From positions 96,001 to 160,000 of IMG/VR virus record IMGVR_UViG_3300031555_003522: DNA of 64,000 nt. One strand, 5' to 3'. The stretch is from a virus (Duplodnaviria > Caudoviricetes). The position numbers were made by a program, and so were the translations under genes. The stretch's first letter is position 1, and every line of letters begins with the position of its first letter. Shown here piece by piece: positions 12,301 to 60,897 of the stretch. The notes under the pieces were generated by a model. The model saw only the letters and a list, made by a program, of their open reading frames with translations, did not search any database and was not told where the DNA came from.

Positions 12301-13526
12301 AAGCCTCTTATATGAGGAACGTTCAACGACTAGTCGAAAGACGTAGGGTTCAAGCGAGCTCGAAATGGAGAGCCCTTAACAGGCAATGCTGAAGGTGAAG
12401 ATATAGTCTAACCTACATGGTGACATGTAGCAGTTCATAAGAGAACGGTATAAGTTTAGCGAACTTATATGAATATTAGGGTTCACACATTAATACACTT
12501 CTGCTTAGATTCTTTATCATGTATCTGCCAGAATTGATTACAGCTGGTAGGGTTTATCGTGCTGTTCCTCCTCTGTTTGGTATTAGAGGTAAGGGCAATA
12601 GTATGAAATACTTTACTACAAAGCTTGATTTCACTAAATATGTCCAGAATTTGTTTGCTCACAATCATGTGCTTACAGATATTAATGGGCGTAGACTTAC
12701 TAGCAATGAAACTACAAATTTATTCTTTAAGAATATAGATTATAAAGATCAAATTGAATCTATTGCAAATACTTTTGCGGTAGATCCTGATCTATTAGAA
12801 TCTGTATTATATCATCTCGCAAGATTTGTTGAGATTGGTAATCCTGAAGCTGTCGCCAGTATGGCTGCAAGGGCTAAAGCCGTAAAGGCTACTAGTAAGA
12901 AAGCAGAAAGTGCGACAAAAAAGAAAACAGAGGGTGCTAGTAAGGCAAAGAAGCAGACCTCTAAAAAAGAAGAAGATATTTCTGATGATGGAGATTTTAA
13001 TATAGAAGATATTCCTATCACAGAAACATCTGTATCTGCATCTGTAGCTTATTACATTAAACCTACGTTTAATGCAAAAGCTCTGAGAACAGAACTGAAG
13101 AAGTTATACAGATTCGTTGATATCGTTGAAGATAATGGTGTCATTAGAATTGAAGGACTTGTCAATAGTAGATATCAATATGTATTTATTAATGATAAAT
13201 TTATAGCTTCTTGTATTCCCCTTATCGAGACCATTAAGAATAATACTGACTTGTATTATCGTGTAAATGATGAAGCTGTTAGTTTGTATTCCTTAATGTG
13301 TCAATTCGATAATATGATCCCATCCGGCCTGATTAGATATAAGGGCTTGGGCGAACAGGATCCAGATCAATTGGCTGTATCTGCACTTCATCCCAAGGGT
13401 GATAGAACTCTTATTAGATATACTATTGAGAGCGCTAAAGAAGAAATCGAAAGTCTTAGACGAATCGATTCTAGTATGGCATCCTTGCTTAGAGAAGTTA
13501 AAATTACTAAAGCAGAGATTGAATAA
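9353..13526 (+). CDS. gyrB: DNA gyrase/topo II subunit B in three exons: 9353-10726, 12042-12209, 12480-13526 (862 aa spliced)
   Basis: RRFPGMYIG, EIFQNAVDE, DTGRGIP, GVHGVG, IVEGDSA; splicing restores QGVFP|IRGKLPN and DADPD|GSHINTLLL; C-terminal RYKGLGE. Confidence 0.95.
10727..12041 (+). mobile_element. Group I intron 1 of gyrB with HNH gene
   Basis: P1 CCCU|G..CGGGG with U-G wobble; core TTAATTGCTGGGA, AATCAGCAGCC, GTTCAACGACTA, GATATAGTCT; terminal G at 12041; frame restored. Confidence 0.93.
10869..11864 (+). CDS. Intron-encoded HNH homing endonuclease
   Basis: YSVSNYG, GYLRVGL, VHRLVLMAF, NHLKGIKIDNRVEELEW; three C-terminal repeats ending ISKD(Y/F)xF. Confidence 0.9.
   Translation: MYNPIIFNNEEFKDIVIPNVKPIYSVSNYGTIINKITGEQISMQITSDGYLRVGLSCLNGNTKHFLVHRLVLMAFCPIPNPESFEGNHLKGIKIDNRVEELEWTTTLENNHHSFDTGLNNNIRENHAKAKLTNDQVHLICQCLEKGMTIKEIEPLIIDTGCIDLGRNIRAIRERKAWVTISKDYSFSSRNNRDMFCDDEVRIICKMIEADAGYKNILISLGIDISTLSSKELANYCDIISNIRVGKYYSDISKDFDFSKSKLFRHDQTLDNDKITKVCKCLESGMSSTEILNKLNISKESVGYEKYDKSRRIINKIRARKAFISISKDYDF
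12210..12479 (+). mobile_element. Group I intron 2 of gyrB (270 nt, no ORF)
   Basis: P1 CCGGAU|A..UGUCCGG; P10 GUGAGCU with exon GGUUCAC; AAGATATAGTCT; terminal G at 12479. Confidence 0.95.
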
Positions 13527-19720: not shown

Positions 19721-19791
19721 TTAATTACATAATCTCGTGTGTTAAATAAACACACGAGATTATTTTTTATTAAATACATAAACAATATAAT

Positions 19792-20084
19792 AAGTCATAG
19801 GTTGCGTTGAGAAAGATATAATGTTTTATCTTATACAATATCAACTGAAGCGAAGATCTATAAAGTAATTTGATTACATGTGCAGATGGTCTTCTTCATA
19901 CATGATAACACTCCTTATCTTCCATATTCCATATTTCACATTCCAACAATCAATACTATATAGGGAGCCAGTGATAATTGTAACCCGGCGATAATTCTAT
20001 ATATTCTTCTCACTGACCACGCAATAAATGACCTCCTGTAATTAGGGTGCTAGACTTTAATCGTCTAGCACCTTATCTCTTTTT
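19792..20084 (+). ncRNA. Candidate structured ncRNA A (~290 nt)
   Basis: AACA-N6-TA at 19781; ends pair (GTCAT/ATGAC, TTGCGT/ACGCAA, TGAGAAAGATATA/TATATTCTTCTCA); terminator 20044-20084; no ORF. Confidence 0.7.
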
Positions 20085-20140
20085 GATCGTATATTATAGA
20101 TCTGCAAACTCTATAGTAATATAAAAAGGAGTGATTAGAA

Positions 20141-23740: not shown

Positions 23741-24976
23741 ATGTCTATTTATGATATTACATCTGAAGATAGAGTGATTTTAAAAGAAGCTGCAATGAAA
23801 TTAGATGCAGATACTGATGCTATAAAAAGAAAAATATATCCTAAGGTTGAAGAGGTATTACAATCTTCTTCTATAGTAAATGCTTATAAACGAGTAGTAA
23901 ATGATTTTGTATCATATAGGTATGAAGAGCTATACGATTCTCTTCCGTGTGCTAGAATGGTGTGTTCTGATGCAGAAATGGATAAAACCTTTACTGCTCT
24001 TAAAATAGATAAAACTTTTGTAAAGAAAGTTATTATTGATGAGACCTATTATGGAAAGATAGAGCACTTTTCTCCTCTTGCTGCTAAACATGAATTTACT
24101 ATTCTTATGCTAAATATTATTAGATATTTTTCTAATAAGAAGATGAATAAGGAAGCTGAATTGGCTCTTATACATCTTGCATTTTCTGGTAAATTTTATC
24201 CTTCTCTTCATTATAGATCTTATCCAATAGTACCAGCAAGATATGTAATGGAGTATGTTGTAAATAATAGACTTAGTAAAAAATTCGATCTTGCTACATA
24301 TGGTAGTGTAATTGGAGCGGTTAAGTCTGTTAGTAAAACTTGGTTAGAAAGATATCAAGATAAATTTAAATCTTTTACCGATGATGATATTAAATATCTG
24401 ATTGATCAGTTATATTCTAGAATCGGATCTTTTATAAAAAATGTAGCTACAGAGTACTACGATGTATATAATAATAAGGATGCTTATTTTGCATACTATT
24501 CTGATTCTACAGATCCTGATGATTATCATATAGCCGATAACGACATGTATAAAATTTCTCGCTATACAGAAAAAGCTGTAAATTATATAAATATTAATGG
24601 TATAGATTATAAGACATGTAAGGTCTGTTCAAATTCTGATATAACTCCAAATGAGTGTAAAGCTGTTATAGAAAGTATTATTTCTACTAAAGAAAATATT
24701 ACTACTATAAAAGAATTAATTTCTCTTATGATAGCTTTATATTTCTCTACCGGAGAAAATGATCTTACCAATATAAATTTCATTACATATACTATTTCTC
24801 CCAAACCTAATGCAAAACAGAAAGAAATAGTTCGAATGAAAGAAATTATTGAAGAATGGTTATGCGAATCTGGTACAGCATATATGAGACGTCGTTCTAG
24901 AGTTGCTACAAGAAATGCTTATGAACGAGCTGTTCGTATGTACTTTGCTCTTACTATTCATAAAGCTAATAGATAA
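23741..24976 (+). CDS. Hypothetical protein (late-type promoter)
   Basis: 411-aa ORF, AAGGAGGT RBS. Confidence 0.85.
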   Translation: MSIYDITSEDRVILKEAAMKLDADTDAIKRKIYPKVEEVLQSSSIVNAYKRVVNDFVSYRYEELYDSLPCARMVCSDAEMDKTFTALKIDKTFVKKVIIDETYYGKIEHFSPLAAKHEFTILMLNIIRYFSNKKMNKEAELALIHLAFSGKFYPSLHYRSYPIVPARYVMEYVVNNRLSKKFDLATYGSVIGAVKSVSKTWLERYQDKFKSFTDDDIKYLIDQLYSRIGSFIKNVATEYYDVYNNKDAYFAYYSDSTDPDDYHIADNDMYKISRYTEKAVNYININGIDYKTCKVCSNSDITPNECKAVIESIISTKENITTIKELISLMIALYFSTGENDLTNINFITYTISPKPNAKQKEIVRMKEIIEEWLCESGTAYMRRRSRVATRNAYERAVRMYFALTIHKANR

Positions 24977-25149
24977 AAGAATAATCCCCATGCCAAATAT
25001 AGGCATGGGGATTATCTTGTGTACAATTGTTATAAAGAAAGAAGAAACAAGACATGGAACTTTTTCTTTTATAAAAAACTGAAGTGGAATGATGAAAAGT
25101 ATTAAAATGGCGAATTTTAAAATACCTTCCACCCTCATCCACCAGCTTT
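24971..25149 (-). ncRNA. Candidate sRNA B (~175 nt), antisense to the RNAP beta translation start
   Basis: Minus-strand AACT-N6-TA at 25160-25149; 5' hairpin domain; segment 25062-25025 complementary to 31101-31132; terminator 25016-24971. Confidence 0.7.
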
Positions 25150-25284
25150 ATTCTAAAGTTCGTTAACTTTTTAATCTTTACATTTTACTTCTTTATTTTC
25201 TTATTTTTTTTTAATTTTTAGTTATAAAAAAATATTTTTCTATATTTAAATATCATAGGTATAATATAATCACTAGATAATTAT

Positions 25285-41019: not shown

Positions 41020-43731
41020 ATGAAATTCACATCATTACACCTTACCAATTACATTGGTATATATAATGGTATGGGATTATATGATATCCATATAGATATG
41101 ACAAAATCCCAAAATAGAATAATGATTATACGAGGAGATAATGGTAGTGGAAAATCAACTCTTGCAAAAGCAATGAGTGTATTTCCAGATCCCAATGATT
41201 CCTTTATTCCAGGTATGCCCGCCAGAAAAGAAATAGTTCTTGCAGATGGCCCAACTTTTTATCGACTTCTTTTTATTCATGGAGTAAAAGCAAATGGAGA
41301 TAGAGAGGTAACAAAGGCATATATAACTAAGACATTTGGAAACACAGCCATTGAATTGAATGAGAATGGTAATGTTTCTTCATATAAAGATATCTTATAT
41401 TCCGAGCTTGGATTGGATGCTAATTTTGTTGCATTATCTCAATTGAGCAATGACGATAGAGGATTGGCGGATAAGAAGCCAGCAGAAAGAAAGAGATTTG
41501 TTAATTCTATAATATCTTCACTTGAGACCTATAATAGTATTTATAAGACATTAACAAAAAGATCTACTAATCTAAAATCTATGATTAGTTCCATTGCAGC
41601 AAAACTTGGAGTTCTTGGAGATCAGCAAACCGTAGATGCAAATTTACAATCCGTTGAAGACAGAATAAACACTCTTCAGGATCTAAAAGATAAAGCTGTT
41701 ACAGAGATGGCAAAAGACCAGTCTCTTATATCTATACTAGATCCAGATGGATCTATTCAATTGAATAATACAAAAATATCTACAGATCTTGCAATTGCTA
41801 AAAAAGATGTAGAGAAAATTCAAGCTAAAATTCTTGCTATTAGACAAGAGAATTCTATACCAGATGGAGATTCTCATAATTTAAGAAGAATAGTATCTGA
41901 TAAAAAGGGATCTCTTATGGTAGCTAATCAGCTTGCTAGAAACAAACTAGAGAATTTATTAAATAGACAAGAAAATGAAGCTAAACTCTTAGGAGATAAG
42001 ACGAGAAGATTGGAGTCTCTTAAGAGTGAATATGATTATGGTATACTTGTAGACAAAATAGCTATTTATACACAAGATATTGCAGATATAGAGAATACTC
42101 TAGGAGCAATAGGAATACGAGATATAATGTCTATAAGTAAAGCTGAATATATATTGGCTCTCGAAACCCTTAGAGACTTATCGGAATATATTCTGAGATT
42201 TAAAGCTTCTACTGATTTGAAAATAATAGAAAGCATTATTGATGAGTATATGCCTACTGGAAAAATACCGGCAAGACAAAGTTCAGATGAAGATGCCAAG
42301 ATAGTTGAAGAAAGCAAATTCAAGATGGTTTCTATAGAAAAAGATGTTGATCTTTTGGAATCTAGACTTGGATTATTAGATAAACTTCAACTAAGACCAG
42401 ATGACTGTACCGATGATTCTTGTCCATTTATTAAAGAAGCTCTAGAATTTTCTAGAACTAATCCTCATAATGAAATAGATAGACTTGATGCATTGGTTTA
42501 TTCGTGCCAAGCTTTAATAGACCACCATTCTAAAGAAATAATTAGAAAAGATGATTATAATAATGCAGTAAACACATTTGCTATTATAGTAAGAGAGATA
42601 GATAAGAACGGAGCTATACTATCTAAAATGCCTAATGGTGAAATGTTTGCAGATAAAAAGCTATTCTTTTCTAGATTATTATCTGGATATAGTTTCGAGT
42701 ATATGGCAGAAATATATAAATATATTGAGTATGCCAATCTATTTGATACCTATAGACAGACTAAGCCAGTTCTTGCCGAGTATCAAGCAGAGCTTAAGGT
42801 TTATGAAAGCAAATCTGAGATTATAGAATCACTAATGAGCGATATACAATCTATAAGTATTGTATTAGACGAAATAATGAGATCTATAGACCCGATAAAT
42901 AAAGAAATTAGTGATAGAGAATTAGAAATATTATCATTACAAGAACTTGAAGGTATATACGATACCATCATTTCTTATGAAGATAAAATGAAACCACTAA
43001 TTCAAAGTATTTCTGAGCTTGAAACTATGCTGAGCAACAATCAGAAAAAAATGATAGATATTACAGAAGCATTAACTAGAATTTCTTCTCATAGAGAATC
43101 TATAGGTAGGTATACATTTGATTTGTCTCCTCTTATGCGAGAAAGAGATAAACTTGTGCATACCTTACAGATGATGAAAGATTATGAGAAAGAACGCGAT
43201 GAGCTTCAGTCGACCTATGATTTTATAGAGACTATTAAATATTACTCATCACCGACTACTGGAATTCAGTTGGTTTTCATGGAACTTTATATGGGTAAAA
43301 TAATAGCTTTAGCTAATAAATTATTGAGCCTATTATTTGGAGGTCAGTTTGTTATACAGCCGTTTGTAATAAATGAGAGTGAATTTAGAATTCCTTGTTT
43401 AGGAAATGGATATATAAATGATGATATATCTTCTATGAGTAGTTCTCAGATTGGAATGATATCGATGATTTTAAGTTTTGCATTATTGTATCATTCTAGT
43501 ACTAAGTATAATATTATTAAACTTGATGAGATCGATGGACCGTTAGATCAAAATAATAGACTATTTTTCTCAGATGTATTAAATAATATTATGGATATTA
43601 TGGGCACAGAACAGTGTATTATGATATCTCATAACTCTGAGCTTCAAGTAGATAATGCTGATGTAATTCTATTAAAGCATGATATAAACAATACTGAATA
43701 TAGAAGAGGAAATATAATTTGGAGTTATTAA
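41020..43731 (+). CDS. sbcC: SbcC/Rad50 ATPase
   Basis: GDNGSGKST, coiled coils, CTDDSCPF hook, SMSSSQ, KLDEIDGPLD, ISH. Confidence 0.93.
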   Translation: MKFTSLHLTNYIGIYNGMGLYDIHIDMTKSQNRIMIIRGDNGSGKSTLAKAMSVFPDPNDSFIPGMPARKEIVLADGPTFYRLLFIHGVKANGDREVTKAYITKTFGNTAIELNENGNVSSYKDILYSELGLDANFVALSQLSNDDRGLADKKPAERKRFVNSIISSLETYNSIYKTLTKRSTNLKSMISSIAAKLGVLGDQQTVDANLQSVEDRINTLQDLKDKAVTEMAKDQSLISILDPDGSIQLNNTKISTDLAIAKKDVEKIQAKILAIRQENSIPDGDSHNLRRIVSDKKGSLMVANQLARNKLENLLNRQENEAKLLGDKTRRLESLKSEYDYGILVDKIAIYTQDIADIENTLGAIGIRDIMSISKAEYILALETLRDLSEYILRFKASTDLKIIESIIDEYMPTGKIPARQSSDEDAKIVEESKFKMVSIEKDVDLLESRLGLLDKLQLRPDDCTDDSCPFIKEALEFSRTNPHNEIDRLDALVYSCQALIDHHSKEIIRKDDYNNAVNTFAIIVREIDKNGAILSKMPNGEMFADKKLFFSRLLSGYSFEYMAEIYKYIEYANLFDTYRQTKPVLAEYQAELKVYESKSEIIESLMSDIQSISIVLDEIMRSIDPINKEISDRELEILSLQELEGIYDTIISYEDKMKPLIQSISELETMLSNNQKKMIDITEALTRISSHRESIGRYTFDLSPLMRERDKLVHTLQMMKDYEKERDELQSTYDFIETIKYYSSPTTGIQLVFMELYMGKIIALANKLLSLLFGGQFVIQPFVINESEFRIPCLGNGYINDDISSMSSSQIGMISMILSFALLYHSSTKYNIIKLDEIDGPLDQNNRLFFSDVLNNIMDIMGTEQCIMISHNSELQVDNADVILLKHDINNTEYRRGNIIWSY

Positions 43732-43803
43732 ATAATAGAGGAAGGAGATAATCCTTCCTCTATTATTTTTTTTAATATTTTACATAATCTGTAACATTAT
43801 TAT

Positions 43804-44120
43804 GAGGAGAAGCTGCGTCCGCCCATATAAAATAACGCCTTTGGAATTACCCCACCTCAGCATGTTTTGGCAGAGGTTGATTTCCATTTGAGTTTTACAC
43901 TCTAACGCCGTATTTTATACGCACCTTCTTCTGACATAGCGGCTCGGGTCCTATACGATATATTTGCCACTTTATATTATCGGTAGGATCGAGCATGTGC
44001 TGGTTTCTCAATTGTCCATATGGCGATCTCCTATGTATGTTACCTTCGTGATGCTTGCGGTAAAATAAAAGTGGCAAAAGTATCCCCCGGCGTAAATGGC
44101 GCCGGGGGATATTCTTTTTT
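43804..44120 (+). ncRNA. Candidate structured ncRNA D (~315 nt) with pseudoknot
   Basis: AACA-N6-TG at 43793; GC-rich; stems 43807-43818/43919-43930, 43826-43833/43911-43918, 43942-43953/43983-43994; loop TTTGCCACTTT (43963-73) pairs with AAAGTGGCAAA (44068-78); terminator 44081-44120. Confidence 0.8.
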
Positions 44121-45078
44121 AATATTCATTCATTATATTATTTCCGTCTAATACAAGAGGCCATACCTGATTGATATTTCTATTTCTTGCTATCTGAGTA
44201 TGAATATCAATTGTAGTATCCTCTAATAAGAAATTATCTGGTCTAGGATAATTAGGAATACTAGCACCAGTAGTCGTATCGATTACGTCAAAACAACGCT
44301 GACCAGTAGCCTGATTATATCTAACTACAGTCTGTACATTAGGATTAGATTCCATACGCATTCTAGCCTGTTCCGGACTCAGTCCATTAGGAGTAATTCC
44401 ATTATTGGCAACCATCTCTACACCAGAAACGCCAGCGGCAGGATTATTTACACCAAGAGTGATATCCTGAATACTAGGAGCAGGAGGTGTATAAACGCCA
44501 ACAGGAGTATTTACAAATGCAGAATAGATATCCATCATCTTCATATCATCATTAGCTTCACTCTTATCCATTTTGAGAGTCTTAAATCTATTAAGATTAA
44601 GATTATGGGCCTGAGTAATAGTGCTGTTAAGTTCTTTAATAGCAGAGATCTTGGTGGATAATAAAGCACTAGCAGATGCTGTTAAATTAGTAAGGTAAGT
44701 GTATTTACCTTTAATAGTTTTGCTAGCGCGAATCTCATCAATATCTCCTTTAATAGCTGCACTCATTTCGTCAGCCTGGACTATAGCACCGCGTAAAAGA
44801 TTATTGGTTTCAGAGTACGAAGTGTGATAGTTTGTCTCTGCTATATCTGCACCGGGTACAGGATTTATCATTCCATTTATACCCAATTGATCTTCAGGAA
44901 TAACTGTGACACTAGCTTTCTTCTTTTTCTTGGATTTGGGATCAGGATCTACTGGTAAAGATGATGCTTCTTCAGAAGTAAAGAAACTAAAATCAACACC
45001 AATACTATCATTATCATTATTGGCTTCCGGTATGCTTTGTGCAATCATACCACCAAATAAAGAAGAGATCTGTTCCAT
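44119..45078 (-). CDS. Hypothetical protein
   Basis: GGAGG RBS before ATG 45078; late-type promoter upstream. Confidence 0.85.
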   Translation of the reverse strand: MEQISSLFGGMIAQSIPEANNDNDSIGVDFSFFTSEEASSLPVDPDPKSKKKKKASVTVIPEDQLGINGMINPVPGADIAETNYHTSYSETNNLLRGAIVQADEMSAAIKGDIDEIRASKTIKGKYTYLTNLTASASALLSTKISAIKELNSTITQAHNLNLNRFKTLKMDKSEANDDMKMMDIYSAFVNTPVGVYTPPAPSIQDITLGVNNPAAGVSGVEMVANNGITPNGLSPEQARMRMESNPNVQTVVRYNQATGQRCFDVIDTTTGASIPNYPRPDNFLLEDTTIDIHTQIARNRNINQVWPLVLDGNNIMNEY

Positions 45079-45155
45079 TATATAAACCTCCATTATTTTT
45101 TTTTAATTATTAAGATGTTTAAGGTAATACTTTACGACATCACAAACATTATTTT

Positions 45156-45256
45156 AATCCTTAAAGGATTAGAAATCGCTCATAACGACTTTTTGATCTG
45201 CCCTGTGTATTTGAAAATATAGCCACGCTTCTGCCGGAGCGTGGCTATATTCTTTT
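45156..45256 (+). ncRNA. Candidate sRNA E (~100 nt), antisense to the translation start of gene 35852
   Basis: AACA-N6-TA at 45145; 5' hairpin 45155-45171; linker 45178-45214 complementary to 35826-35857; terminator 45216-45256. Confidence 0.78.
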
Positions 45257-45348
45257 ATCATGGACAATTGTATATTATAATAGTGCAAAAAACTATTTAT
45301 TAATATCCTAAACGTACGCAATTCTATCGAATTAGGAAGGTGACTCTA

Positions 45349-49305: not shown

Positions 49306-51717
49306 ATGGCTAGAAATGAAAGAGCTGCATCAGAAGCCAGTAAGAGACTACAGTCTATAGGTCAGGGTATTGCGTCTAATATGGATGCTCTATATAGAAG
49401 CACTTATATGACAACAACCACCCAGAGTAAAGACCTTCAGGATCTTACTGATAGAATTAATGATAATATTGATCAAATAGTTGCTAGAAATAATGATGCT
49501 CATGGTATTCCTAGTGTTAGTACGCTGTATACCAGAATTGCCAGAAATAACTCAAAAGATCAGAAGAGTTCTGATTTTATAAATGGCTTAGAAAATATGT
49601 TTGATAATGGTATGGTTACAGATGATCTATATGACCTATTCATGAGTAATAGATATTTGAGAGAATTGGATAACGAAATAGATACCATTTGTAAATATAT
49701 GCCTGATCTTGAAGAAGCATTGGCAGTTATGAAAGACTGTGTGCTTTCTGCAGATCACTTCTCCAAAGATTTTCTTAGCCTTACAACTACTTCATCTGGA
49801 GTTCAAGCAACTGTATTTTCCGAAAGGGTTAAAGACCTCAAGAAGAGATATAAACTTCTCCCTCTTGTAGAAGAGATATATGAAAATATGTCTAAATATG
49901 GTGAACAGTTTATCTATCGTGTACCTTATAAAGATGCTATAGGTAGACTATTATCTACAAAACCAGATACTTCTCTTGTTATGCCTCATAGAGGATTGCA
50001 TGAAAGTACTCAGGAAGAAGATAAAAACTCTCTGTTTATGCTTAGTATGAATAATGAATCCTGTACCATTATTGGCATGGATAATCATGAATATTTAAAT
50101 GAGTCTGCGACTATTATTACAGAAGGTACAACTCATGTGTCTAATGGAGAGGATGTTACTACTCCTATGCAGACAAGTATTCTTGATAAGAAAGAATCTT
50201 TCAATATAGGTATAGAAATATGTAGGTCTGGTGTCATAGAGAGTGTTATTTCTGGCTATAGAGATGCTATTGCTAAGAAAACAAAATACACAAATGAATC
50301 TATGATGAAAGCATATGCAGAATCTTCTAAGAAAAATATAGAAGCTAGTGGAAATATAACACTTCCCAAAGATAAGACAGATGGTAGGATACTTACCAAT
50401 GATGGTCTTATCGGAGGAAGTAGACCTGAACCTGTAAAAGTTGATCTTCCTGGTTGTGTTGTTAAAAAGCTTCGCAGAGATCATGTATATCCTATTTATA
50501 TTGAAGATATATGTATGGGATATTATTACTTTGAACTCAGACAGACTGATGAAGCCGATGCTTTTATGGGCTTTAAGAATATATTGGGAGACGTAACCAC
50601 TAATATGAGGAATAGTGGTAACGATGGTCGTACTCCCTTCAATGCTGTAGATAGCCAAAGACAGGATAATACTATTAAGTATGTAGCTGCTCAGCTATCT
50701 AAATTTATTGATAAGCAGTTTGTAAATGCAAATCAGGATATTGGTAAAGAAATTTATATGATACTGAAGTATAATGATCTTTTCAATACTCCTTCTATTG
50801 ATTCTATCAAAGTTACGTTTATTCCTCCTGAAGATATCGTACATTTCTTCTTTAGACAGGATCCGATAACCCATAGAGGTATTTCTGATCTTGAGAAATC
50901 TATGGTTCCTGCAAAGGTATATACTAGTTTGTATATCACATCTGCTATCGGTAATCTGACTAGAGGTTATGATAAGCGAGTATATTATGTAAAGCAAACT
51001 GTAGATACTAATATTGCTAAGAATCTACTCACAACTATATCTCAGATTAAACAGTCTAATTTTGGTATTAGACAATTCCAGAATATTAATCATATTCTAA
51101 ATATTACTGGTAGATTCAATGATTTGGTTATTCCCACCAATGCTTCTGGAGATCCTCCTATTCAGTTTGAGATTATGCCTGGACAAAATATAGAGGTTCC
51201 TACTGAGCTTATGGAAGAACTGAAGTCTAGTGCTGTTAGTAGTACTGGTATTCCTATTGAAATTATTCAGGCTAGACAGTCTATAGACTATGCAATGCAG
51301 TTGACAATGTCTAGCTCCAAAGTTCTTAGACTTTGCTATAAGAGACAGGAGCTGTATGAAGAACAACTTGCTACATTAATAGCACCTATCTATAATTATC
51401 AATATGATGAAAATATTTCTATCAATATTGAACTTCCCCCTCCGACATTTATCAATGTGACGAATACCAATCAGCTTGTAGATAATACTAAGAATTTGGT
51501 ACAATCTTTTGTTGATGTAGATCTTGCTGGAGTGAATGATGATGCATTGAGACAGAAATATAGTAAAGAGTTGTTCAAGCACTATATTGGTACTCATATG
51601 GACATCTCCAGACATCAGGATATTCTTGAAAGATGTAAAATAGAATTAGCAAAAGATAATGATGAATCTCATAGTGATAATGCTGGAAATGAAAATACTG
51701 GAGACGACTATTATTAA
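49306..51717 (+). CDS. Portal protein (phiKZ/AR9-like)
   Basis: 803 aa next to the sheath/tube genes; KYGEQF, RGYDKRVYYV, PIQFEIMPGQ, TGIP features. Confidence 0.7.
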   Translation: MARNERAASEASKRLQSIGQGIASNMDALYRSTYMTTTTQSKDLQDLTDRINDNIDQIVARNNDAHGIPSVSTLYTRIARNNSKDQKSSDFINGLENMFDNGMVTDDLYDLFMSNRYLRELDNEIDTICKYMPDLEEALAVMKDCVLSADHFSKDFLSLTTTSSGVQATVFSERVKDLKKRYKLLPLVEEIYENMSKYGEQFIYRVPYKDAIGRLLSTKPDTSLVMPHRGLHESTQEEDKNSLFMLSMNNESCTIIGMDNHEYLNESATIITEGTTHVSNGEDVTTPMQTSILDKKESFNIGIEICRSGVIESVISGYRDAIAKKTKYTNESMMKAYAESSKKNIEASGNITLPKDKTDGRILTNDGLIGGSRPEPVKVDLPGCVVKKLRRDHVYPIYIEDICMGYYYFELRQTDEADAFMGFKNILGDVTTNMRNSGNDGRTPFNAVDSQRQDNTIKYVAAQLSKFIDKQFVNANQDIGKEIYMILKYNDLFNTPSIDSIKVTFIPPEDIVHFFFRQDPITHRGISDLEKSMVPAKVYTSLYITSAIGNLTRGYDKRVYYVKQTVDTNIAKNLLTTISQIKQSNFGIRQFQNINHILNITGRFNDLVIPTNASGDPPIQFEIMPGQNIEVPTELMEELKSSAVSSTGIPIEIIQARQSIDYAMQLTMSSSKVLRLCYKRQELYEEQLATLIAPIYNYQYDENISINIELPPPTFINVTNTNQLVDNTKNLVQSFVDVDLAGVNDDALRQKYSKELFKHYIGTHMDISRHQDILERCKIELAKDNDESHSDNAGNENTGDDYY

Positions 51718-51763
51718 AAAGAATAATCCCCACTGGATAATTCCAGTGGGGATTTATATTTTA

Positions 51764-52621
51764 TTAGATACTGGTACGAGTAACAGAATCCTGAATCAGC
51801 TTAGTCTGAGCCAGACCACTATGAGCATCGCTAAGAGCAGCATAGTTGTAATCCCAGCTATTACGGTGTACCATCTTGCTATTGGCAGAGGAGTTCATCC
51901 AATCGAGGATCTTCTTTGCACGAGCATTGATAGCGGAACCAGTAATGGGGAATCCACTAAACTCAGCAGAGATTTCCTGGAACTGAACATCACCCTTATT
52001 GCCATTAAAGATAGACAACTGAGCGGTAGTGGGCATACAACCAACAAGGTAGACAGCTCTCTCAACCAGCAGACCAGTATTATCGGTATGCAGGTACAGG
52101 AAGCTAAAGCATTCCTTGTGGAAGCCAGCATCATTTGGCAGAATCTGTCCGTTTTCAAAACCGATCATACCATTATAGGTCTTAAAACCGGTTGCAGGAT
52201 CACGAACAGAACGCAGATACAGTTCATGCATCTTAGTAATAGTTGCACCAGACTTTTCCATGTAGTTCATAGAGAAGTTGGAGCCACCCTGGCCATTAAC
52301 CTTGGTAATGACATTCATAGCCTGGAGACCATTTTCGATAGGAGTAGAATCGGAACTCATATCCTCCAGACCAGAGCCAAATCCACGGAATTCATACTCA
52401 AGAATATGAGTATAGGAATTAACCAGCTGAGCAACCTCAGTATCAGCTTCGGCCATCTTACGCAAGAATTCGGGAATAGAAACCACGATCAGATAAGGAT
52501 AACCACTCTCGTACAGATCAAACTGCTGAAGCTGAGTAAAGTCCGTAGTACCACGGAACAGCGTATAAGCAGTAATATCACGAGGGGTCTTCAGATCGGT
52601 AAACATATTATACTGACCCAT
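51764..52621 (-). CDS. Tail tube protein
   Basis: Directly downstream of the sheath; EKSG..RDPATG, FLYLHTD, GCMPT. Confidence 0.75.
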   Translation of the reverse strand: MGQYNMFTDLKTPRDITAYTLFRGTTDFTQLQQFDLYESGYPYLIVVSIPEFLRKMAEADTEVAQLVNSYTHILEYEFRGFGSGLEDMSSDSTPIENGLQAMNVITKVNGQGGSNFSMNYMEKSGATITKMHELYLRSVRDPATGFKTYNGMIGFENGQILPNDAGFHKECFSFLYLHTDNTGLLVERAVYLVGCMPTTAQLSIFNGNKGDVQFQEISAEFSGFPITGSAINARAKKILDWMNSSANSKMVHRNSWDYNYAALSDAHSGLAQTKLIQDSVTRTSI

Positions 52622-52645
52622 AAGTATTATTCTCCTTTCTTAAGA

Positions 52646-54499
52646 TTAAGATTCGATCTCTTCGGTAGAGAGAGCAACAACCTTAATCATTTCGGTCTGG
52701 ATAAAGTCCTTATATGCGACCTTCAGAACAGCATAGAAGATCTTGTTGACAGAATAAGTTGCATCCTGGACGTACTCCAGAGTCAGAGTATTAAAGTTGC
52801 TACGATAAGCGGCAATGACTTCTTCAACATCAGCCTTATAAGCCTCGAGATCCTCACCCTCAAAGAAGGTATAACGGATAGCAGGGCAACGGGTACGGAT
52901 AGCCTTAACAACTTCCTGAATACCCATGACGTTGTTGACAAAAGACCACTGACTGTACTTCTCCTGAGAGGTGTACAGAGCTTCAATAACCAGACGGTTG
53001 TCGATATAGGAAGCATAGTTTACACGCATATCCTCAAGGATTTCCTTCTGGTTGACAGTGGGACAGATAACAGGAGAGAAGGACAGAGTGCCATAAATGG
53101 CATTGTCAATACTCATGTTATACTTCATACCAGCAGTAGGCAGAATCCGACCATTGTTAATATGCTGGACAAGCTTGATAGCAATGTCGTAGCCAATGGT
53201 GACAGAAATCTGACGCTTGGTATAGGGATCAATGATATCATAAGACTGAGGATAGGTTGCGCAGAACATGCTCTTAGCCTCATCCTTACAATTAGATTCG
53301 ATAGCATTGATAGTGGTAACCTTCAAGCCCTGATCACGGAAGTACATAAAGTCTTCACGGAACATCGCCAGAGCTTCGATGGCACGCTTAACCTTTGCAG
53401 GATAGTTAGCATCGACAATAGCATCAATCTTATACTGATCCATATTGTAGATGACATTATCGAAAGTGCCGTTAAATGCTTCAACAGCCTGATCGGCCCA
53501 AGCATCAACAGCTTCGATGGGGTAGTCACCAAATGCGCCATTGGAACCACCAGACAACATCTGACCATACTCATACTGAAGGTTAATGCCATCAGCATCG
53601 AAAGTAATATTGGGCAGATCGGTACCACGATTGGTGCAGCCAAACAGCACATCGTACTTATACATAGCAGCGGCATCAATAGTGTCGTCGCCAGTAGCAG
53701 CAGCCAGAGCTTCAACATAAGCATCCAGCTGATCGGGGTATTCAATACACTGCAGCTGAGAGGAATTGGTAGAAACCATTCCCTGCAGAGAGATATTGAC
53801 ACCATTAGCAATCAGAGCATGGTTAGCACTGAAGGTCATAGATTCAACCTCAATATTACCTTCAAAGACCTGAAGAGTGTACAGAACATACTCCAGAGAC
53901 TTAGAGACCTTATAGTTGGGGGTGATCTTAATACGCTTCTTGCTAGTACCACGACCATTGTCAGAAATGACATACAGAAGATACTCGCCCTCTGCCAGAT
54001 TTTCGAGAATTGCATCAGCAGCCTCTTTGATAGTTGCGGTATTTTCTGCAGACTTGATGGAATAAGTGACCTTATTCACAGTCTTGGAAACCATATAGGG
54101 AGTCTCAGTAACCTCAACAGTCTGGTTACCCTCGCTGTCAACATACAGCAGAGCGCCAGTTGCATCGGTACCCTGAACTTCGGTTTCCTCCTGAGTGATG
54201 GCGGCAACAATACCCATATTCGCCAGGGTTGCATCTTCAGCTACCAGACGCTTACACAACAGCTCTGCACCAGAGTTGATGGACATAGCGGCCTGCAGCA
54301 GAGGCTGACCATGACGCTTGAAGGAGATACTCTTGCCATACATCTTAAAGAAATCTTCGCCAGAGATACGGGTCCATGCTTCAGTACCCTTATCAGAACT
54401 AAATACAGCACAATACAGAGGCATATTACGGACTTCCGTAATAGGCAATGTAGAAATGCCGCTTTGGTCTTCATATTCAGCAATGAAACCAGGATACAT
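52646..54499 (-). CDS. Contractile tail sheath protein
   Basis: MYPG..YEDQS start, F.KMYG, LSGGSNG, DANYP..VKRAI, PTAG. Confidence 0.85.
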   Translation of the reverse strand: MYPGFIAEYEDQSGISTLPITEVRNMPLYCAVFSSDKGTEAWTRISGEDFFKMYGKSISFKRHGQPLLQAAMSINSGAELLCKRLVAEDATLANMGIVAAITQEETEVQGTDATGALLYVDSEGNQTVEVTETPYMVSKTVNKVTYSIKSAENTATIKEAADAILENLAEGEYLLYVISDNGRGTSKKRIKITPNYKVSKSLEYVLYTLQVFEGNIEVESMTFSANHALIANGVNISLQGMVSTNSSQLQCIEYPDQLDAYVEALAAATGDDTIDAAAMYKYDVLFGCTNRGTDLPNITFDADGINLQYEYGQMLSGGSNGAFGDYPIEAVDAWADQAVEAFNGTFDNVIYNMDQYKIDAIVDANYPAKVKRAIEALAMFREDFMYFRDQGLKVTTINAIESNCKDEAKSMFCATYPQSYDIIDPYTKRQISVTIGYDIAIKLVQHINNGRILPTAGMKYNMSIDNAIYGTLSFSPVICPTVNQKEILEDMRVNYASYIDNRLVIEALYTSQEKYSQWSFVNNVMGIQEVVKAIRTRCPAIRYTFFEGEDLEAYKADVEEVIAAYRSNFNTLTLEYVQDATYSVNKIFYAVLKVAYKDFIQTEMIKVVALSTEEIES

Positions 54500-54597
54500 T
54501 AACGTTTCCTCCTTTATAATATTTATAATTTAAAAAGATCTTTAATGCATAAAATTAGAGCATTACAGCTTTTTATTTTTATGTTATGAATAGCAAA

Positions 54598-55993: not shown

Positions 55994-57280
55994 TTAGAAG
56001 CTAGTCTTCCAAGTCAGAGCATCAACGACAGCCTTCTCAGAAGTAACCTTCTCGTCAGAAGCAGCATCAGCCTGAGCAGCAAATTCAGCAGAACCGACGA
56101 TATCGGTCTTAGCTACGGCATAGCCCTGGACATAAGCCTGAGCACCAGCCTCGGTAGCCAGTACAGTAGCACCACCGGTCATGGTCTCGCCACCCAGAGT
56201 GTAACCAGAAGCTTCAGCATCGCCTTCAGCAGATGCGCGGATAACCTGGCCAGCAGCGGCAGCGTCGACCTTGTTCATCTTCTTATTGATGGACTCATTC
56301 AGAGCATCACGAACACCAGCAATGTGAGCGGCAACAGCGGCCTCAGTAGCCAGAGTAGTTGCATTGGGAGTCTCAGCCAGAGTAGCAGCACCAGCCTTAA
56401 CACCAGAATCAGCAATGCCACCCTCAGCAGTCAGAGTTGCAACATTACCAGCAGTAGCACCAGCAACCTTATCAACCTTGCCAGACAGATCCTGAGCAGC
56501 AACATACAGACCATTGTCGGTCAGGGTCAGCATATTACCGTCTGCCTCGGAAACAATAGCCTCAGCGGTGAACTCATTACCAGTAACGGTCAGCTGAACA
56601 CCCTTACCGCTCTTAGCAGTGTAGGTATCAACCAGATCGCCAACAGGAATCTCCAGATCTTCAGACTCATCATTGAAGGACAGGATGATCTTCTTAGTCT
56701 CATCATTATAAGTTGCAGATTCTACGAATCTTTCGAGATCCAGGTTAATAGCAGTACCCAGAGCAGTACCCTCAGCGTTCAGAATGGTCAGAGCGCCAGT
56801 AGAAGGATCATATGCCAGGGAAGCTGCAACATTGGTCATGGGCAGATCCTGAGTATTACCATCACCAGTGGTAACCTTCAGAGTATTGGTAGCGGCGGTA
56901 TAAGATACGCCAGTAACAACACTAGCAGAACCAGTAACATTAGCAATCTGCTCGGTGACATAGTCGACAACAGCCTTGCCAGTTACGCCCTGAGTTTCAT
57001 TGGATGCTTCGACAGTATTTGCAACAGGCTTAATGACGGTGGTCCAAGCGGTACCATTCCATATACGGCCTTCCAGAGTTGCAGAGTCGATGTACAGCTT
57101 GCCCATGGCAATGCCAGTGGTGGGAAGCGTAGTATACAGCTCAACAGACTCATTGAACAACTGAGTGCCGCGATACAGTTCGCCAGTATCTTCCAGGAAG
57201 CACAGCATGTCGTTGGTTACTTTGCCAGCCTGGACAGCAGCCTTATATGCGTCACTCTTAATAAAATACCAAGATAACAT
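55994..57280 (-). CDS. Fibre-like structural protein
   Basis: Ala/Thr/Gly-rich; N-terminal half paralogous to 58975-60897, C-terminus to 57386-58957. Confidence 0.75.
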   Translation of the reverse strand: MLSWYFIKSDAYKAAVQAGKVTNDMLCFLEDTGELYRGTQLFNESVELYTTLPTTGIAMGKLYIDSATLEGRIWNGTAWTTVIKPVANTVEASNETQGVTGKAVVDYVTEQIANVTGSASVVTGVSYTAATNTLKVTTGDGNTQDLPMTNVAASLAYDPSTGALTILNAEGTALGTAINLDLERFVESATYNDETKKIILSFNDESEDLEIPVGDLVDTYTAKSGKGVQLTVTGNEFTAEAIVSEADGNMLTLTDNGLYVAAQDLSGKVDKVAGATAGNVATLTAEGGIADSGVKAGAATLAETPNATTLATEAAVAAHIAGVRDALNESINKKMNKVDAAAAGQVIRASAEGDAEASGYTLGGETMTGGATVLATEAGAQAYVQGYAVAKTDIVGSAEFAAQADAASDEKVTSEKAVVDALTWKTSF

Positions 57281-57385
57281 AATTTAGTTTCCTCCTTAAA
57301 TTTAGGTTTAATAAAATGTTTAATTTTTTCCTCATATAGTGATATGTTTTTATATAATGGGGTGGAAAACCACCCCATCAATATA

Positions 57386-58957
57386 TTACATAGTAGTCTT
57401 CCACTGCAACATGCTCAGAAGCAGTTCTTCAGAAACTACCTTACCAGAAGATGCAGCTTCAGCAGACTCTGCAACATTAGCAGAAGTGACAATGTTGGAG
57501 ACCAAAACAGCATTCTCATCAGTGTAAGTCTTTGCGCCAGCAATAGCTTCAGTCTTAACGCCTGCCAGAGTCTCAGTCAGACCAGTGATCTTAGACTGAG
57601 GAACAGCGTTAATAGAAGCAGTACCATTAGCATCGACACCGATAGTAGCACCATCGGGCTTAACACCACCAATGGAATTTACAGTTGCAACAGGAAGCTC
57701 ATAGACCTTGACATCCTGACCGTCAACAGCAATATGACCATTGGTTTCACCAGCAACGACACTCTGTACGGCAGTATCAGCCTTAGCACCCTGCTCAGCA
57801 GTAGCAAAAGCATCAGGATCGTAGGCATCAGTAACAGCCTTTACCTCAGCAATAGCATCAGCAAGCTCCTTTTCCTTGGCCATAGCACGAGTCTCTTCCG
57901 CTTTAACAGCCTCAGCAATGTAGCCAAATACAGTAGTAGCAGTAGCACCCTCGGGCAGAGCACCAACCAGTTCTTCCAGAGCCTTAATAGCAGTAGCATT
58001 GCTATTGATATTTTCATTCATCTTGGTGACATCGGTTGCATGATTCTCAGCCCAATCAACCAGTTCCTTCAGAGTGTCGAGGCCCTCAGAGCCTTCACCA
58101 TCCAGATAAGTACTAATAACCTGAGCAATCTTGTAATCGACGGAACCCTCAGTCTGAGCATTGGCATTCAGAGTCTTAATATCATTTTCGGTCTTAGTAA
58201 CACGATCAGACAGAGCACCTTCAGCATTAGTAGCACGCTCAACCTCTTCGGCCAGCGCCTCATCCTGAGTAGTCTTGTTGTTATCAACCTTAGTGTTGAT
58301 TGCTTCGACTTCCTTCTGCAGGGAAGACATACTGGAAGACAGACCTTCAACGGTAATACGAGAGGGCTCGTACCAAGCCAGCTCATAGCCATTACCGGCA
58401 GCATTAGCAACAGCCTTGGGCTCCAAGCCACCAACCCAGCCCTGGGTCAGTTCATAGTAGCCATTAGTCTGAGGAGTAGTAGTAGCCTGTGCCCAAGCAC
58501 CCTCGAGATACTGATAATAGACATCGCCAATCTTGACATAGTCTCTTTCAGAAGGAGATTCGGGCATAGCATCGGGATAGGTATACTCGCCTTCCAGAAC
58601 GACATCTTCCATGTACTTATAGTACTCGACGCCGAAAGCCTTCAGACCAATAGTGCCACCATCGCCGACAGAAATTGTCTTATCATCACCAACAACACGA
58701 GCACCCAGCTCCTTCAGAGTCTTATCGGGCTCGATAGAGTAATGAGTAACAACACCGTTTTCATAAACGGTGATCTTCTGGCCGATATAATACTTAGTAT
58801 TAGTAGAGCCAGCATTCTCAGCAGTCTGAGCCGCAGCAAAGGCTTCATTATAGCTACCAAACATGCTTCTCACGTCAAGCGGGAATGCACTCTTGGGCTC
58901 AAAGCCAACGGCAAAGCTCAGAATATTAGTTACCTTTTCATAACTATTTGCGCTCAT
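57386..58957 (-). CDS. Fibre-like structural protein
   Basis: AFPLD, LDTLKEL, E..RA..AE coiled-coil repeats, GGVKPDG. Confidence 0.75.
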   Translation of the reverse strand: MSANSYEKVTNILSFAVGFEPKSAFPLDVRSMFGSYNEAFAAAQTAENAGSTNTKYYIGQKITVYENGVVTHYSIEPDKTLKELGARVVGDDKTISVGDGGTIGLKAFGVEYYKYMEDVVLEGEYTYPDAMPESPSERDYVKIGDVYYQYLEGAWAQATTTPQTNGYYELTQGWVGGLEPKAVANAAGNGYELAWYEPSRITVEGLSSSMSSLQKEVEAINTKVDNNKTTQDEALAEEVERATNAEGALSDRVTKTENDIKTLNANAQTEGSVDYKIAQVISTYLDGEGSEGLDTLKELVDWAENHATDVTKMNENINSNATAIKALEELVGALPEGATATTVFGYIAEAVKAEETRAMAKEKELADAIAEVKAVTDAYDPDAFATAEQGAKADTAVQSVVAGETNGHIAVDGQDVKVYELPVATVNSIGGVKPDGATIGVDANGTASINAVPQSKITGLTETLAGVKTEAIAGAKTYTDENAVLVSNIVTSANVAESAEAASSGKVVSEELLLSMLQWKTTM

Positions 58958-58974
58958 TATTCTTTACCTCCTTC

Positions 58975-60897
58975 TTACAGAGTTACAGAGTAGGTGTTTT
59001 CCTTAGTGCTGGGATCAGAAGCATCCTCGTAGAAGACTACATAAGGAACAGCCTGATATCCATTAGCACCCTCGACATTCACCTGTACATTAAGGAAAGC
59101 GGTGTTGATCTGAGCCATCATACCATTGTTATCAATGACAGAAGCCAGAGCAGCAACACCAATAGAAGCGGGAACAGCAATAACAGTTCTCAGAGTACCG
59201 ACAGGAATAGTCATATCAAATGCATGACCAGCAGCAACAGCTGCATCAGACTTACTCAGACCACGAATGACAGCAGAAGTCAGTTCAGTCTTAGCAGTCA
59301 GACAGCCATAGAACATGTTACGATAGCCAGTAATAGCGGAAGAAGTCTTAGACTTGCTGCCACCTTTAATCTGACCTGCAGCATAGGGATTACAAGTATT
59401 GGTAACAGGAATAGCGCCATCACCATAAGTTGCAGTAGCAGAAACAGTATAGTTGGTGTCATCGGTAACAGTAATTCCATCAAAGGAACCATTGTTGCTA
59501 GTAGAGGAACCACCATCGGAGTTAGTTACCTCCCAAGAGGTAGCAGTAACACCAGTAGCGGGGCCATAAGTATACTTACCAGCATTCAGAGATGCAGCAT
59601 AAGTAACATCGACAGAAGTACCAACTTCATACTCGCCAGCCTGATTCAAGGTTATAGAAACAGAGGGCTGAGTAGTACTGGGATTAGCTTCCTTAATATA
59701 GATAGAATTCCAGACATCAATCAGGTTCTTTCCCTTAGCAGGAATAGTAGCCTGACCATTGGTCAACTTAAAGTTGCCAATTGCAGTCGTAGTGCTCAGA
59801 TCTTCAGGGAAGAATACATTAGCAGCACTGTAATTGCCATCCATAGCTTCCCATGCGGTGCCATTGAAGACATATGCAGTATGCTGATACTTACCAGTAC
59901 CCTCACCGATCTCAGTACGAACAATGCAAATATCGTGCTCAACAGGTGTATTGCCAGCAACAGCTTCATCGATAGAAGCACCGATATATACCTTAGAGTT
60001 GGAGCCCAGATCCTCGAAGTTCTTGCCAGAATCAACAGCCTGGCCATCAGCACCCAGAACCAGAATATTGCCCTCAACACCATCGGTAACCTTATCCATC
60101 TTACCAGAGATGTCAATGGGTGCAACATACAGACCATTTTCATCAACAGTAATCAGGTTGTCAGAAGCGGTAGAAATCTTGACAGCACCAGTAATAGTAT
60201 TACCAGTAACAGACAGATCAAGAGTGGTACTACCCTCGGCTTTATAGATATCAACCAGATCTTCAACAGGAATAGTGACAAAGTCAGTCTTCTCAGCATC
60301 GAAATACAGGTAGATAGCCTTTTCATCTACATTATATTCACCAGAGCTAACGAAACGTTCCAGATCGAGCTTAACTGCATTACCCAGAACATTACCACTA
60401 GCATCCAGCATCTTTAACTCACCACTAGCGGCAGTATACTGCAGGCTTACACCGAGACCATCGAATACGATACTTTCGGTGCTATCATCGCCCTTAGTAA
60501 CAGTTAACAGATGCTCAGCACTGTCCCAAGACAGTGCACTAACGCTACCTTCTGCAGTAGCCATCTTAGCCAGTTCACTAGCAACATAGGCCACGACAGC
60601 CTTGCCAGAAACGGGCACCTTTGCCTCGTCGATAACAGAATCAGACACAGCATTAATAACAGTCTTCCAACCATTAACAGCGCCCTGCCAGATCTTACCT
60701 TCGAGAGTTTCAGAATTAATGTACAATCTATTCAGAGCGGGAGACGTCGGCAGAGTTCCAGTATACATGATAACAGACTCTGTAAACGGCTCAGAACCCC
60801 GATAGATTTCTCGAGTGTCACTCAAAAAGTACATATGCCCTTCCTGGGGCGTACCATTGTGAAACATCTCAGATGTGACAAAATGCCAATTAATCAT
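58975..60897 (-). CDS. Fibre-like structural protein with beta-rich (Ig-like) C-terminus
   Basis: AAGGAGG RBS before ATG 60897; paralogous N-terminal half. Confidence 0.75.
   Translation of the reverse strand: MINWHFVTSEMFHNGTPQEGHMYFLSDTREIYRGSEPFTESVIMYTGTLPTSPALNRLYINSETLEGKIWQGAVNGWKTVINAVSDSVIDEAKVPVSGKAVVAYVASELAKMATAEGSVSALSWDSAEHLLTVTKGDDSTESIVFDGLGVSLQYTAASGELKMLDASGNVLGNAVKLDLERFVSSGEYNVDEKAIYLYFDAEKTDFVTIPVEDLVDIYKAEGSTTLDLSVTGNTITGAVKISTASDNLITVDENGLYVAPIDISGKMDKVTDGVEGNILVLGADGQAVDSGKNFEDLGSNSKVYIGASIDEAVAGNTPVEHDICIVRTEIGEGTGKYQHTAYVFNGTAWEAMDGNYSAANVFFPEDLSTTTAIGNFKLTNGQATIPAKGKNLIDVWNSIYIKEANPSTTQPSVSITLNQAGEYEVGTSVDVTYAASLNAGKYTYGPATGVTATSWEVTNSDGGSSTSNNGSFDGITVTDDTNYTVSATATYGDGAIPVTNTCNPYAAGQIKGGSKSKTSSAITGYRNMFYGCLTAKTELTSAVIRGLSKSDAAVAAGHAFDMTIPVGTLRTVIAVPASIGVAALASVIDNNGMMAQINTAFLNVQVNVEGANGYQAVPYVVFYEDASDPSTKENTYSVTL

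Follow-up and report, generated by a model that had tools for sequence, protein, structure and literature searches.

The cuckoo, ar14 and CcsR sRNAs of Alphaproteobacteria are composed of 2–4 short hairpins with a fixed loop sequence, CCUCCUCCC, and contain no multiloops (PMC4615179). RNAIII of Staphylococcus aureus, as far as it is cited in the same paper, is a long multi-domain RNA from a Bacillota setting, which directs several pyrimidine-rich elements against ribosome binding sites. Among the phage-encoded RNAs, the prophage sRNAs DicF, PreS, VpdS and 24B_1 act in trans as base-pairing regulators; they are short, mostly Hfq-dependent, and belong to temperate phages of Proteobacteria (reviewed in PMC12197685). 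For the jumbo phages of the AR9 group, late and antisense transcripts were described in AR9, the antisense ones acting in cis (PMC5312081), and phiR1-37 produces misc_4, an ORF-less intergenic RNA of ~300 nt for which neither a structure nor a family has been described and no target has been proven (PMC4848604). In the literature, we found no trans-acting sRNA with a proven target for this phage group.

The RNA described here, designated RNA D, resembles the cuckoo sRNAs in its modular design, with several anti-Shine-Dalgarno (anti-SD) elements carried on variable stems. Unlike them, it is ~315 nt long, multibranched, pseudoknotted and phage-encoded, and its elements, called cassettes below, differ from one another and include anti-AUG segments. 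Neither CCUCCUCCC in each loop nor an array of 2–4 simple hairpins free of a multiloop was found in RNA D. The length, the multi-domain organization, the pyrimidine-rich elements and the Bacillota setting are as in RNAIII, but RNA D has no UCCC loop motif or conserved peptide ORF, and it has a pseudoknot, a phage late promoter and lineage-swapped cassettes. By analogy, RNA D may work like cuckoo and RNAIII, yet it lacks the motifs that define them. It would share base-pairing regulation with the prophage sRNAs, which are phage-encoded as well but are not multi-cassette. The phage group and promoter type are those of AR9, and the phage group, size, intergenic position and lack of an ORF are those of misc_4. 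No sequence similarity was detected among 50,697 phage records, and BLAST of RNA D against named phages returned chance matches only.

RNA D is located in a 64,000-nt stretch of DNA (the window, to which coordinates refer unless given as genome positions), corresponding to bases 96,001–160,000 of a 207,861-nt virus record, a ~208-kb jumbo phage. The SbcC/SMC gene and the RNA polymerase subunits are nearest to those of AR9/PBS1/phiR1-37-type jumbo phages, and animal faecal metagenomes contain near-identical DNA. Judged by sequence, the source is a gut jumbo phage, AR9/PBS1-like. The listed sequencing runs with near-identical DNA included no RNA dataset. RNA D occupies a 387-nt gap between the SbcC/SMC-like ATPase gene (41020–43731, + strand), which is syntenic in all relatives, and a convergent conserved hypothetical gene of 319 aa (44119–45078, − strand), for which Pfam and PHROG searches gave no match. 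Both flanking genes are intact, full-length ORFs. The first-pass annotation had noticed a GC-rich island here, and the GC content is indeed ~44% in the island versus ~30% in the flanks.

An AR9-type late promoter motif for the non-virion RNA polymerase (nvRNAP), AACA-N6-TG, lies at 43793–43804 (+). In the AR9 late consensus, the last base of the motif is +1 (PMC5312081), and the predicted +1 of RNA D is 43804. The motif is found upstream of 33% of the phage's genes, as compared with 6% of random windows, and it is also present at the locus in 6/6 close relatives. One strain contig (depth 5.9) carries 43796 A>T and 43804 G>A, both of which remain within the promoter consensus. An intrinsic terminator of the SMC gene (43730–43768, +) is predicted to insulate RNA D from upstream transcription. 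At the other end, an intrinsic terminator of RNA D (44079–44120, +) with a 15-bp stem and a U tract shows compensatory changes; the terminator proper is at 44079–44113, directly after position 44078 as had been proposed, and the convergent gene probably ends there too. No conserved + strand ORF was found in RNA D and its relatives. At the motif level, RNA D is thus an ORF-less, stand-alone RNA gene with its own promoter and terminator, as is typical of antisense sRNAs, and we infer that it is transcribed.

Syntenic loci were gathered via the flanking protein, and six distinct close relatives were compared with RNA D (seven RNAs). The flanking protein is 82–90% identical in these relatives and the four-fold sites are 39–53% identical; synonymous sites are near saturation. 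The multistem 5' domain (43804–43932, +), delimited earlier as 43804–43931, is closed by helix P1 (43805–43818 with 43919–43932), and in 7/7 RNAs the strands of P1 are paired yet different in sequence. A long hairpin (43942–43994, +) follows, and its loop bears the pseudoknot 5' strand (43963–43973, +), while the 3' strand (44068–44078, +) stands immediately before the terminator stem. The hairpin and this long-range pairing, both read from the sequence in the first pass, were confirmed. The pseudoknot consists of 11 perfect Watson-Crick pairs (P=0.009, 2000 dinucleotide shuffles), and the helix recurs in 6/6 relatives with 7–13 bp, always with the 5' strand in a hairpin loop, although the stem around this loop is of unrelated sequence in each phage. 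The comparison of homologues yielded compensatory pairs: in six aligned sequences every position of the pseudoknot core is paired, and A-U>G-C occurs twice and C-G>U-G once. Compensatory changes were also found in P1 and in the terminator, which is kept after the pseudoknot 3' strand at the same locus in 6/6 relatives, while the RNA interior varies in length and order. The z score of nested folding was −3.7 with the terminator and −0.5 without it; because the former value owes mostly to the terminator, it is the comparison, rather than the folding energy, that carries the structure. From these alignments, RNA D and its relatives form a real, undescribed family of structured RNAs within one clade of jumbo phages, and covariation backs their pseudoknot.

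A model, R1, built without the relative L005 recovered this held-out sequence. R1 gave no confident match in the syntenic gaps of distant phages, and therefore the family is demonstrated for the close clade only. A scan of IMG/VR with the pseudoknot pattern returned 80 loci, of which the model confirmed none. In the same gap, distant phages have 1–3 ORF-less promoter-terminator units whose homology to RNA D is undetectable. L074 (4952–5837) and the L007 gap have in common a conserved, structured-looking element of ~300 nt that is unrelated to RNA D and had no match in Rfam. In one relative (L071, 4973–5097), the gap is only 125 nt long, which indicates that the RNA can be missing from this locus or have moved.

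Rfam, at both thresholds, assigned RNA D to no family and gave only terminator-driven scores far below the gathering threshold; none of 15 related loci was assigned either, and a group I intron at 12208–12430 was detected as a control. ARAGORN found no tmRNA in the window or the 15 related loci, no tRNA matched RNA D, and for a tmRNA, both the conserved + strand ORF and a 3' end other than a terminator are missing. Models of RNase P, SRP and 6S RNA gave no match even at E≤10, nor was RNA D matched by group I or group II introns. These searches agree with the earlier judgement that the RNA does not resemble a tRNA, tmRNA, SRP RNA or group I core. A reverse transcriptase would accompany a retron, DRT or DGR RNA; the genome record (completeness estimated at 84%) had no PF00078 match, and the neighbours of RNA D are the SMC and hypothetical genes. 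Self-BLAST showed no repeats or paralogue of RNA D, as a type III antitoxin RNA would have, and no TnpB or IscB gene adjoins the locus, as it would an omega-RNA. No LSM/Hfq-like gene was found in the genome record. Elsewhere in this genome, further group I cores occur in many gaps, one of them adjoined by a tRNA-Leu gene (genome 54444–54531). A TnpB-family ORF (213–1415), ~35% identical to TnpB of Clostridium/Bacillus, directly follows a group I intron-like sequence.

The original account gave one anti-SD segment, whereas RNA D holds several such cassettes, each of which would comprise an anti-AUG followed 5–11 nt later by an anti-SD tract. Cassette M1 (43821–43842, +) has a GCCCAU anti-start, predicted to be unpaired, and a CCUUU anti-SD; GCCC(C)AU occurs in 6/7 RNAs at varying positions. 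A possible second cassette, M2 (43882–43903, +), has CAU and then UUACACUCU, and is likely a diverged version of cassette b of the relatives. Cassette a (M7; 44011–44046, +) lies inside the pseudoknot loop, with CAU at 44017–44019 and the anti-SD AUCUCCU at 44026–44032, both predicted to be mostly unpaired when the pseudoknot is formed. The pseudoknot may keep this cassette in an exposed loop and may also shield the 3' end. Cassette a is the most conserved of the family: the portion recurring in the relatives (RNA D 44025–44037) is identical over 13–14 nt in three phages; a fourth differs only by wobble-type C>U changes, and a fifth has one further change. Across the close clade, cassettes a, b and c recur in varying combinations, conserved or swapped individually. 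Their differences are mostly A<>G or C<>U, changes that would be tolerated because G-U pairing to a fixed partner is still possible. On the promoter strand of 11 syntenic gaps, 23 anti-(SD+AUG) motifs were counted against 9.1±3.0 in shuffled sequences (maximum 19, 500 shuffles), and on the opposite strand there were 3. The seven close RNAs alone contained 12 against 5.8±2.3 (P=0.018). Like trans-acting antisense sRNAs, RNA D thus has a seed that is conserved, predicted to be accessible and able to pair with initiation regions by its sequence. The core of the earlier proposal, a structured, pseudoknotted noncoding RNA outside known families that presents an anti-SD/anti-AUG segment, is supported. 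At the sequence level, comparison establishes the promoter motif, the terminator, P1, the pseudoknot, and the enrichment and conservation of the cassettes. A syntenic unit of another phage (L017; G001 56782–57252) carries five anti-start cassettes ~30–35 nt apart, within ~150 nt and inside a closing helix, and none of them matches its own genome well.

Some of these features could also come from an RNA with a structural or protein-binding role (a scaffold, a decoy or a packaging-type RNA), in which the anti-SD and CAU words would be incidental or part of the internal structure; we consider this quite unlikely. The pseudoknot and P1, unlike the cassettes, are the most universal elements (7/7), an anti-SD tract at 43921–43931 is buried within P1, and cassette a is able to self-fold in three RNAs. 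A rigid RNP core, however, would not allow as much variation in length and order as the interior shows, the enrichment of anti-start motifs is strand-specific, and one relative, L085, keeps cassette a intact though its hairpin partner has been lost. The gap might also be non-functional, made up of remnants of small genes on the minus strand or merely spacing one terminator from the next, since every cassette reads as SD plus ATG on the minus strand and nested folding without the terminator is no better than shuffles. This is very improbable: ORFs on the minus strand are short and lack conservation (spot translations in G001 and L008 included), and between them and the transcript of the convergent gene lies the terminator. 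The + strand is indicated by the promoter motif, by the G-U pairs and by the U tract, and compensatory changes occur in P1, the pseudoknot and the terminator.

We favour, at slightly better than even confidence, that RNA D is a late, multi-cassette antisense repressor of translation, with the beta'C gene described below as the leading single candidate target. The nvRNAP of the phage would transcribe RNA D as a stand-alone small-RNA gene, and the scaffold of P1, hairpin-loop pseudoknot and terminator would display several exchangeable cassettes. These would pair in trans across the initiation regions (SD and AUG) of several mRNAs and keep the 30S subunit from binding, and the pseudoknot-enclosed cassette a would act on the phage's own beta'C start, so that late transcription would be under negative feedback. 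In this reading, base pairing inside the cell, the repressive effect and each of the targets are inferred.

Foreign phage start regions served as the fair control for target scores; block-shuffled nulls inflate significance because they destroy the SD–AUG geometry. The first-pass annotation had drawn a colinear pairing with the leader of gene 5599, had named gene 40582 as a weaker alternative, and had allowed for a target outside the window. The pairing with 5599 can be drawn, yet it is at chance level among the phage's own start regions, ranking 8/209 by duplex energy, 48/192 by alignment and 13/192 by segment energy; the leaders of its orthologues in three distant relatives are unrelated, and this target was rejected. 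Gene 40582 ranked 25–30/209 by duplex energy and was not supported either. A target beyond the window fits better, as the best partner is a start at genome 168482, 8.5 kb outside it. Its product is homologous to chain D of the AR9 nvRNAP structure, and on this homology the gene is taken as nvRNAP beta'C.

Cassette a pairs with the beta'C start without gaps (score 52, rank 2/192), exceeding all four foreign sets in the alignment test (maxima 46–49). Across ~60 orthologous start regions near the locus, the beta'C start scored 50 versus 22–41. The beta'C start region is unusually conserved (37–38/40 nt in two relatives), L080 and L003 reach it using other cassettes, and single-base target changes in the beta'C starts of L085 and L003 are mirrored in their own RNAs. 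AUGUA, the conserved end of cassette a, has 3 mismatched positions against this start. As scored from sequence, the pairing lies only marginally above the foreign controls. A z of at least 4 was reached by 3/192 own starts versus 1/636 foreign starts; by duplex energy, foreign starts tie with or exceed the best own start for every segment. A combined score over the seven RNAs did not separate own from foreign genomes, and genome-wide own-versus-sibling co-evolution gave nothing significant (P=0.20). A preference of pairing for early over late genes was also not significant (P=0.15–0.25). Early-promoter genes prefer GGAG[A/U/C] over GGAGG (P=0.007; repeated in 3/4 relatives), and the cassettes match the former best. 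Since the 9 nt at the core of the cassette a target form an SD word that is common in bacteria, the cassettes may be generic. With early and late classes assigned by crude promoter motifs, early-type promoters go mostly with GGAG[A/U/C] and late promoters with GGAGG/GAGGU in G000–G003 (Fisher P = 0.007, 0.0006, 0.004 and 0.00007, respectively), a split that is absent in the G005 fragment. The top alignment score, 55, belonged to gene 75199, which was set aside as its pairing segment is a P1 strand, predicted to be buried. Cassette c of L003 forms 18 contiguous pairs with the start of the tail-tube gene; this target is plausible in the relatives, yet the own genome does not score above sibling genomes.

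The cassettes may instead be aimed at host mRNAs, possibly of defence genes, by the same mechanism, an antisense counter-defence RNA that we judge unlikely. In five distant phages, foreign genomes offer every cassette a pairing at least as good as its own genome does, the five G001 cassettes read as natural protein starts, and fast cassette turnover fits an arms race. The exact target predicted for cassette c of the relatives has 5 scattered matches in GTDB, one of which falls where cas9 ends and cas1 starts in the type II CRISPR locus of a Clostridia MAG; a second genome of the same family has the identical 15-mer at cas1. These matches make the cas1 start a weak lead as a host-type target of cassette c. 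The match is, however, a single independent event, and one given by construction; in that family, counts with one mismatch were the same as for the reversed control, and the scores of 31 type II cas1 starts barely exceed those of starts from foreign phages. RNA D itself lacks cassette c and scores 24–27 on the two lead cas1 starts. A CRISPR spacer search found no match and no link to the cas1-bearing family, the exact predicted target of cassette b had no match in GTDB, and a late promoter is a poor fit to counter-defence. Scans of viral sequences for exact targets stayed at chance level. The two loci concerned (L106, 7–3850, and L235) are type II cas9-cas1-cas2-array loci in ~1-Mb Clostridia genomes, and the cas1 SD sits in the last cas9 codons, complementing cassette c over 15 nt.

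A broader form of the antisense-repressor model is possible though doubtful: AR9-like gut jumbo phages may keep a reprogrammable antisense RNA at a fixed locus, a pseudoknotted scaffold on which cassettes are added, lost or swapped, each silencing one phage or host gene (possibly cas1). If true, the phages would have a natural device for silencing the translation of several genes in multiplex. The family bears on how jumbo phages of this group balance early against late translation, or how they silence genes of the host. Since the cassettes are short and mutable and the structure is backed by covariation, the model is testable in a heterologous reporter and phage culture is unnecessary; a scaffold tolerating exchangeable anti-start cassettes could become a multiplex knock-down tool in gut Bacillota.

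The window contains three other ORF-less units with the late motif, at 19781–20090 (+), 24971–25160 (−) and 45145–45260 (+), with 2, 0 and 1 anti-start motifs, respectively, and none in the sense direction. The unit at 24971–25160 gave a weak match to R1, probably via its terminator. Long + strand shadow ORFs at 51659–54502, 56324–57277 and 57344–58993 oppose real minus-strand structural genes, such as the tail tube gene (51764–52621, −), and mislead simple gene callers.
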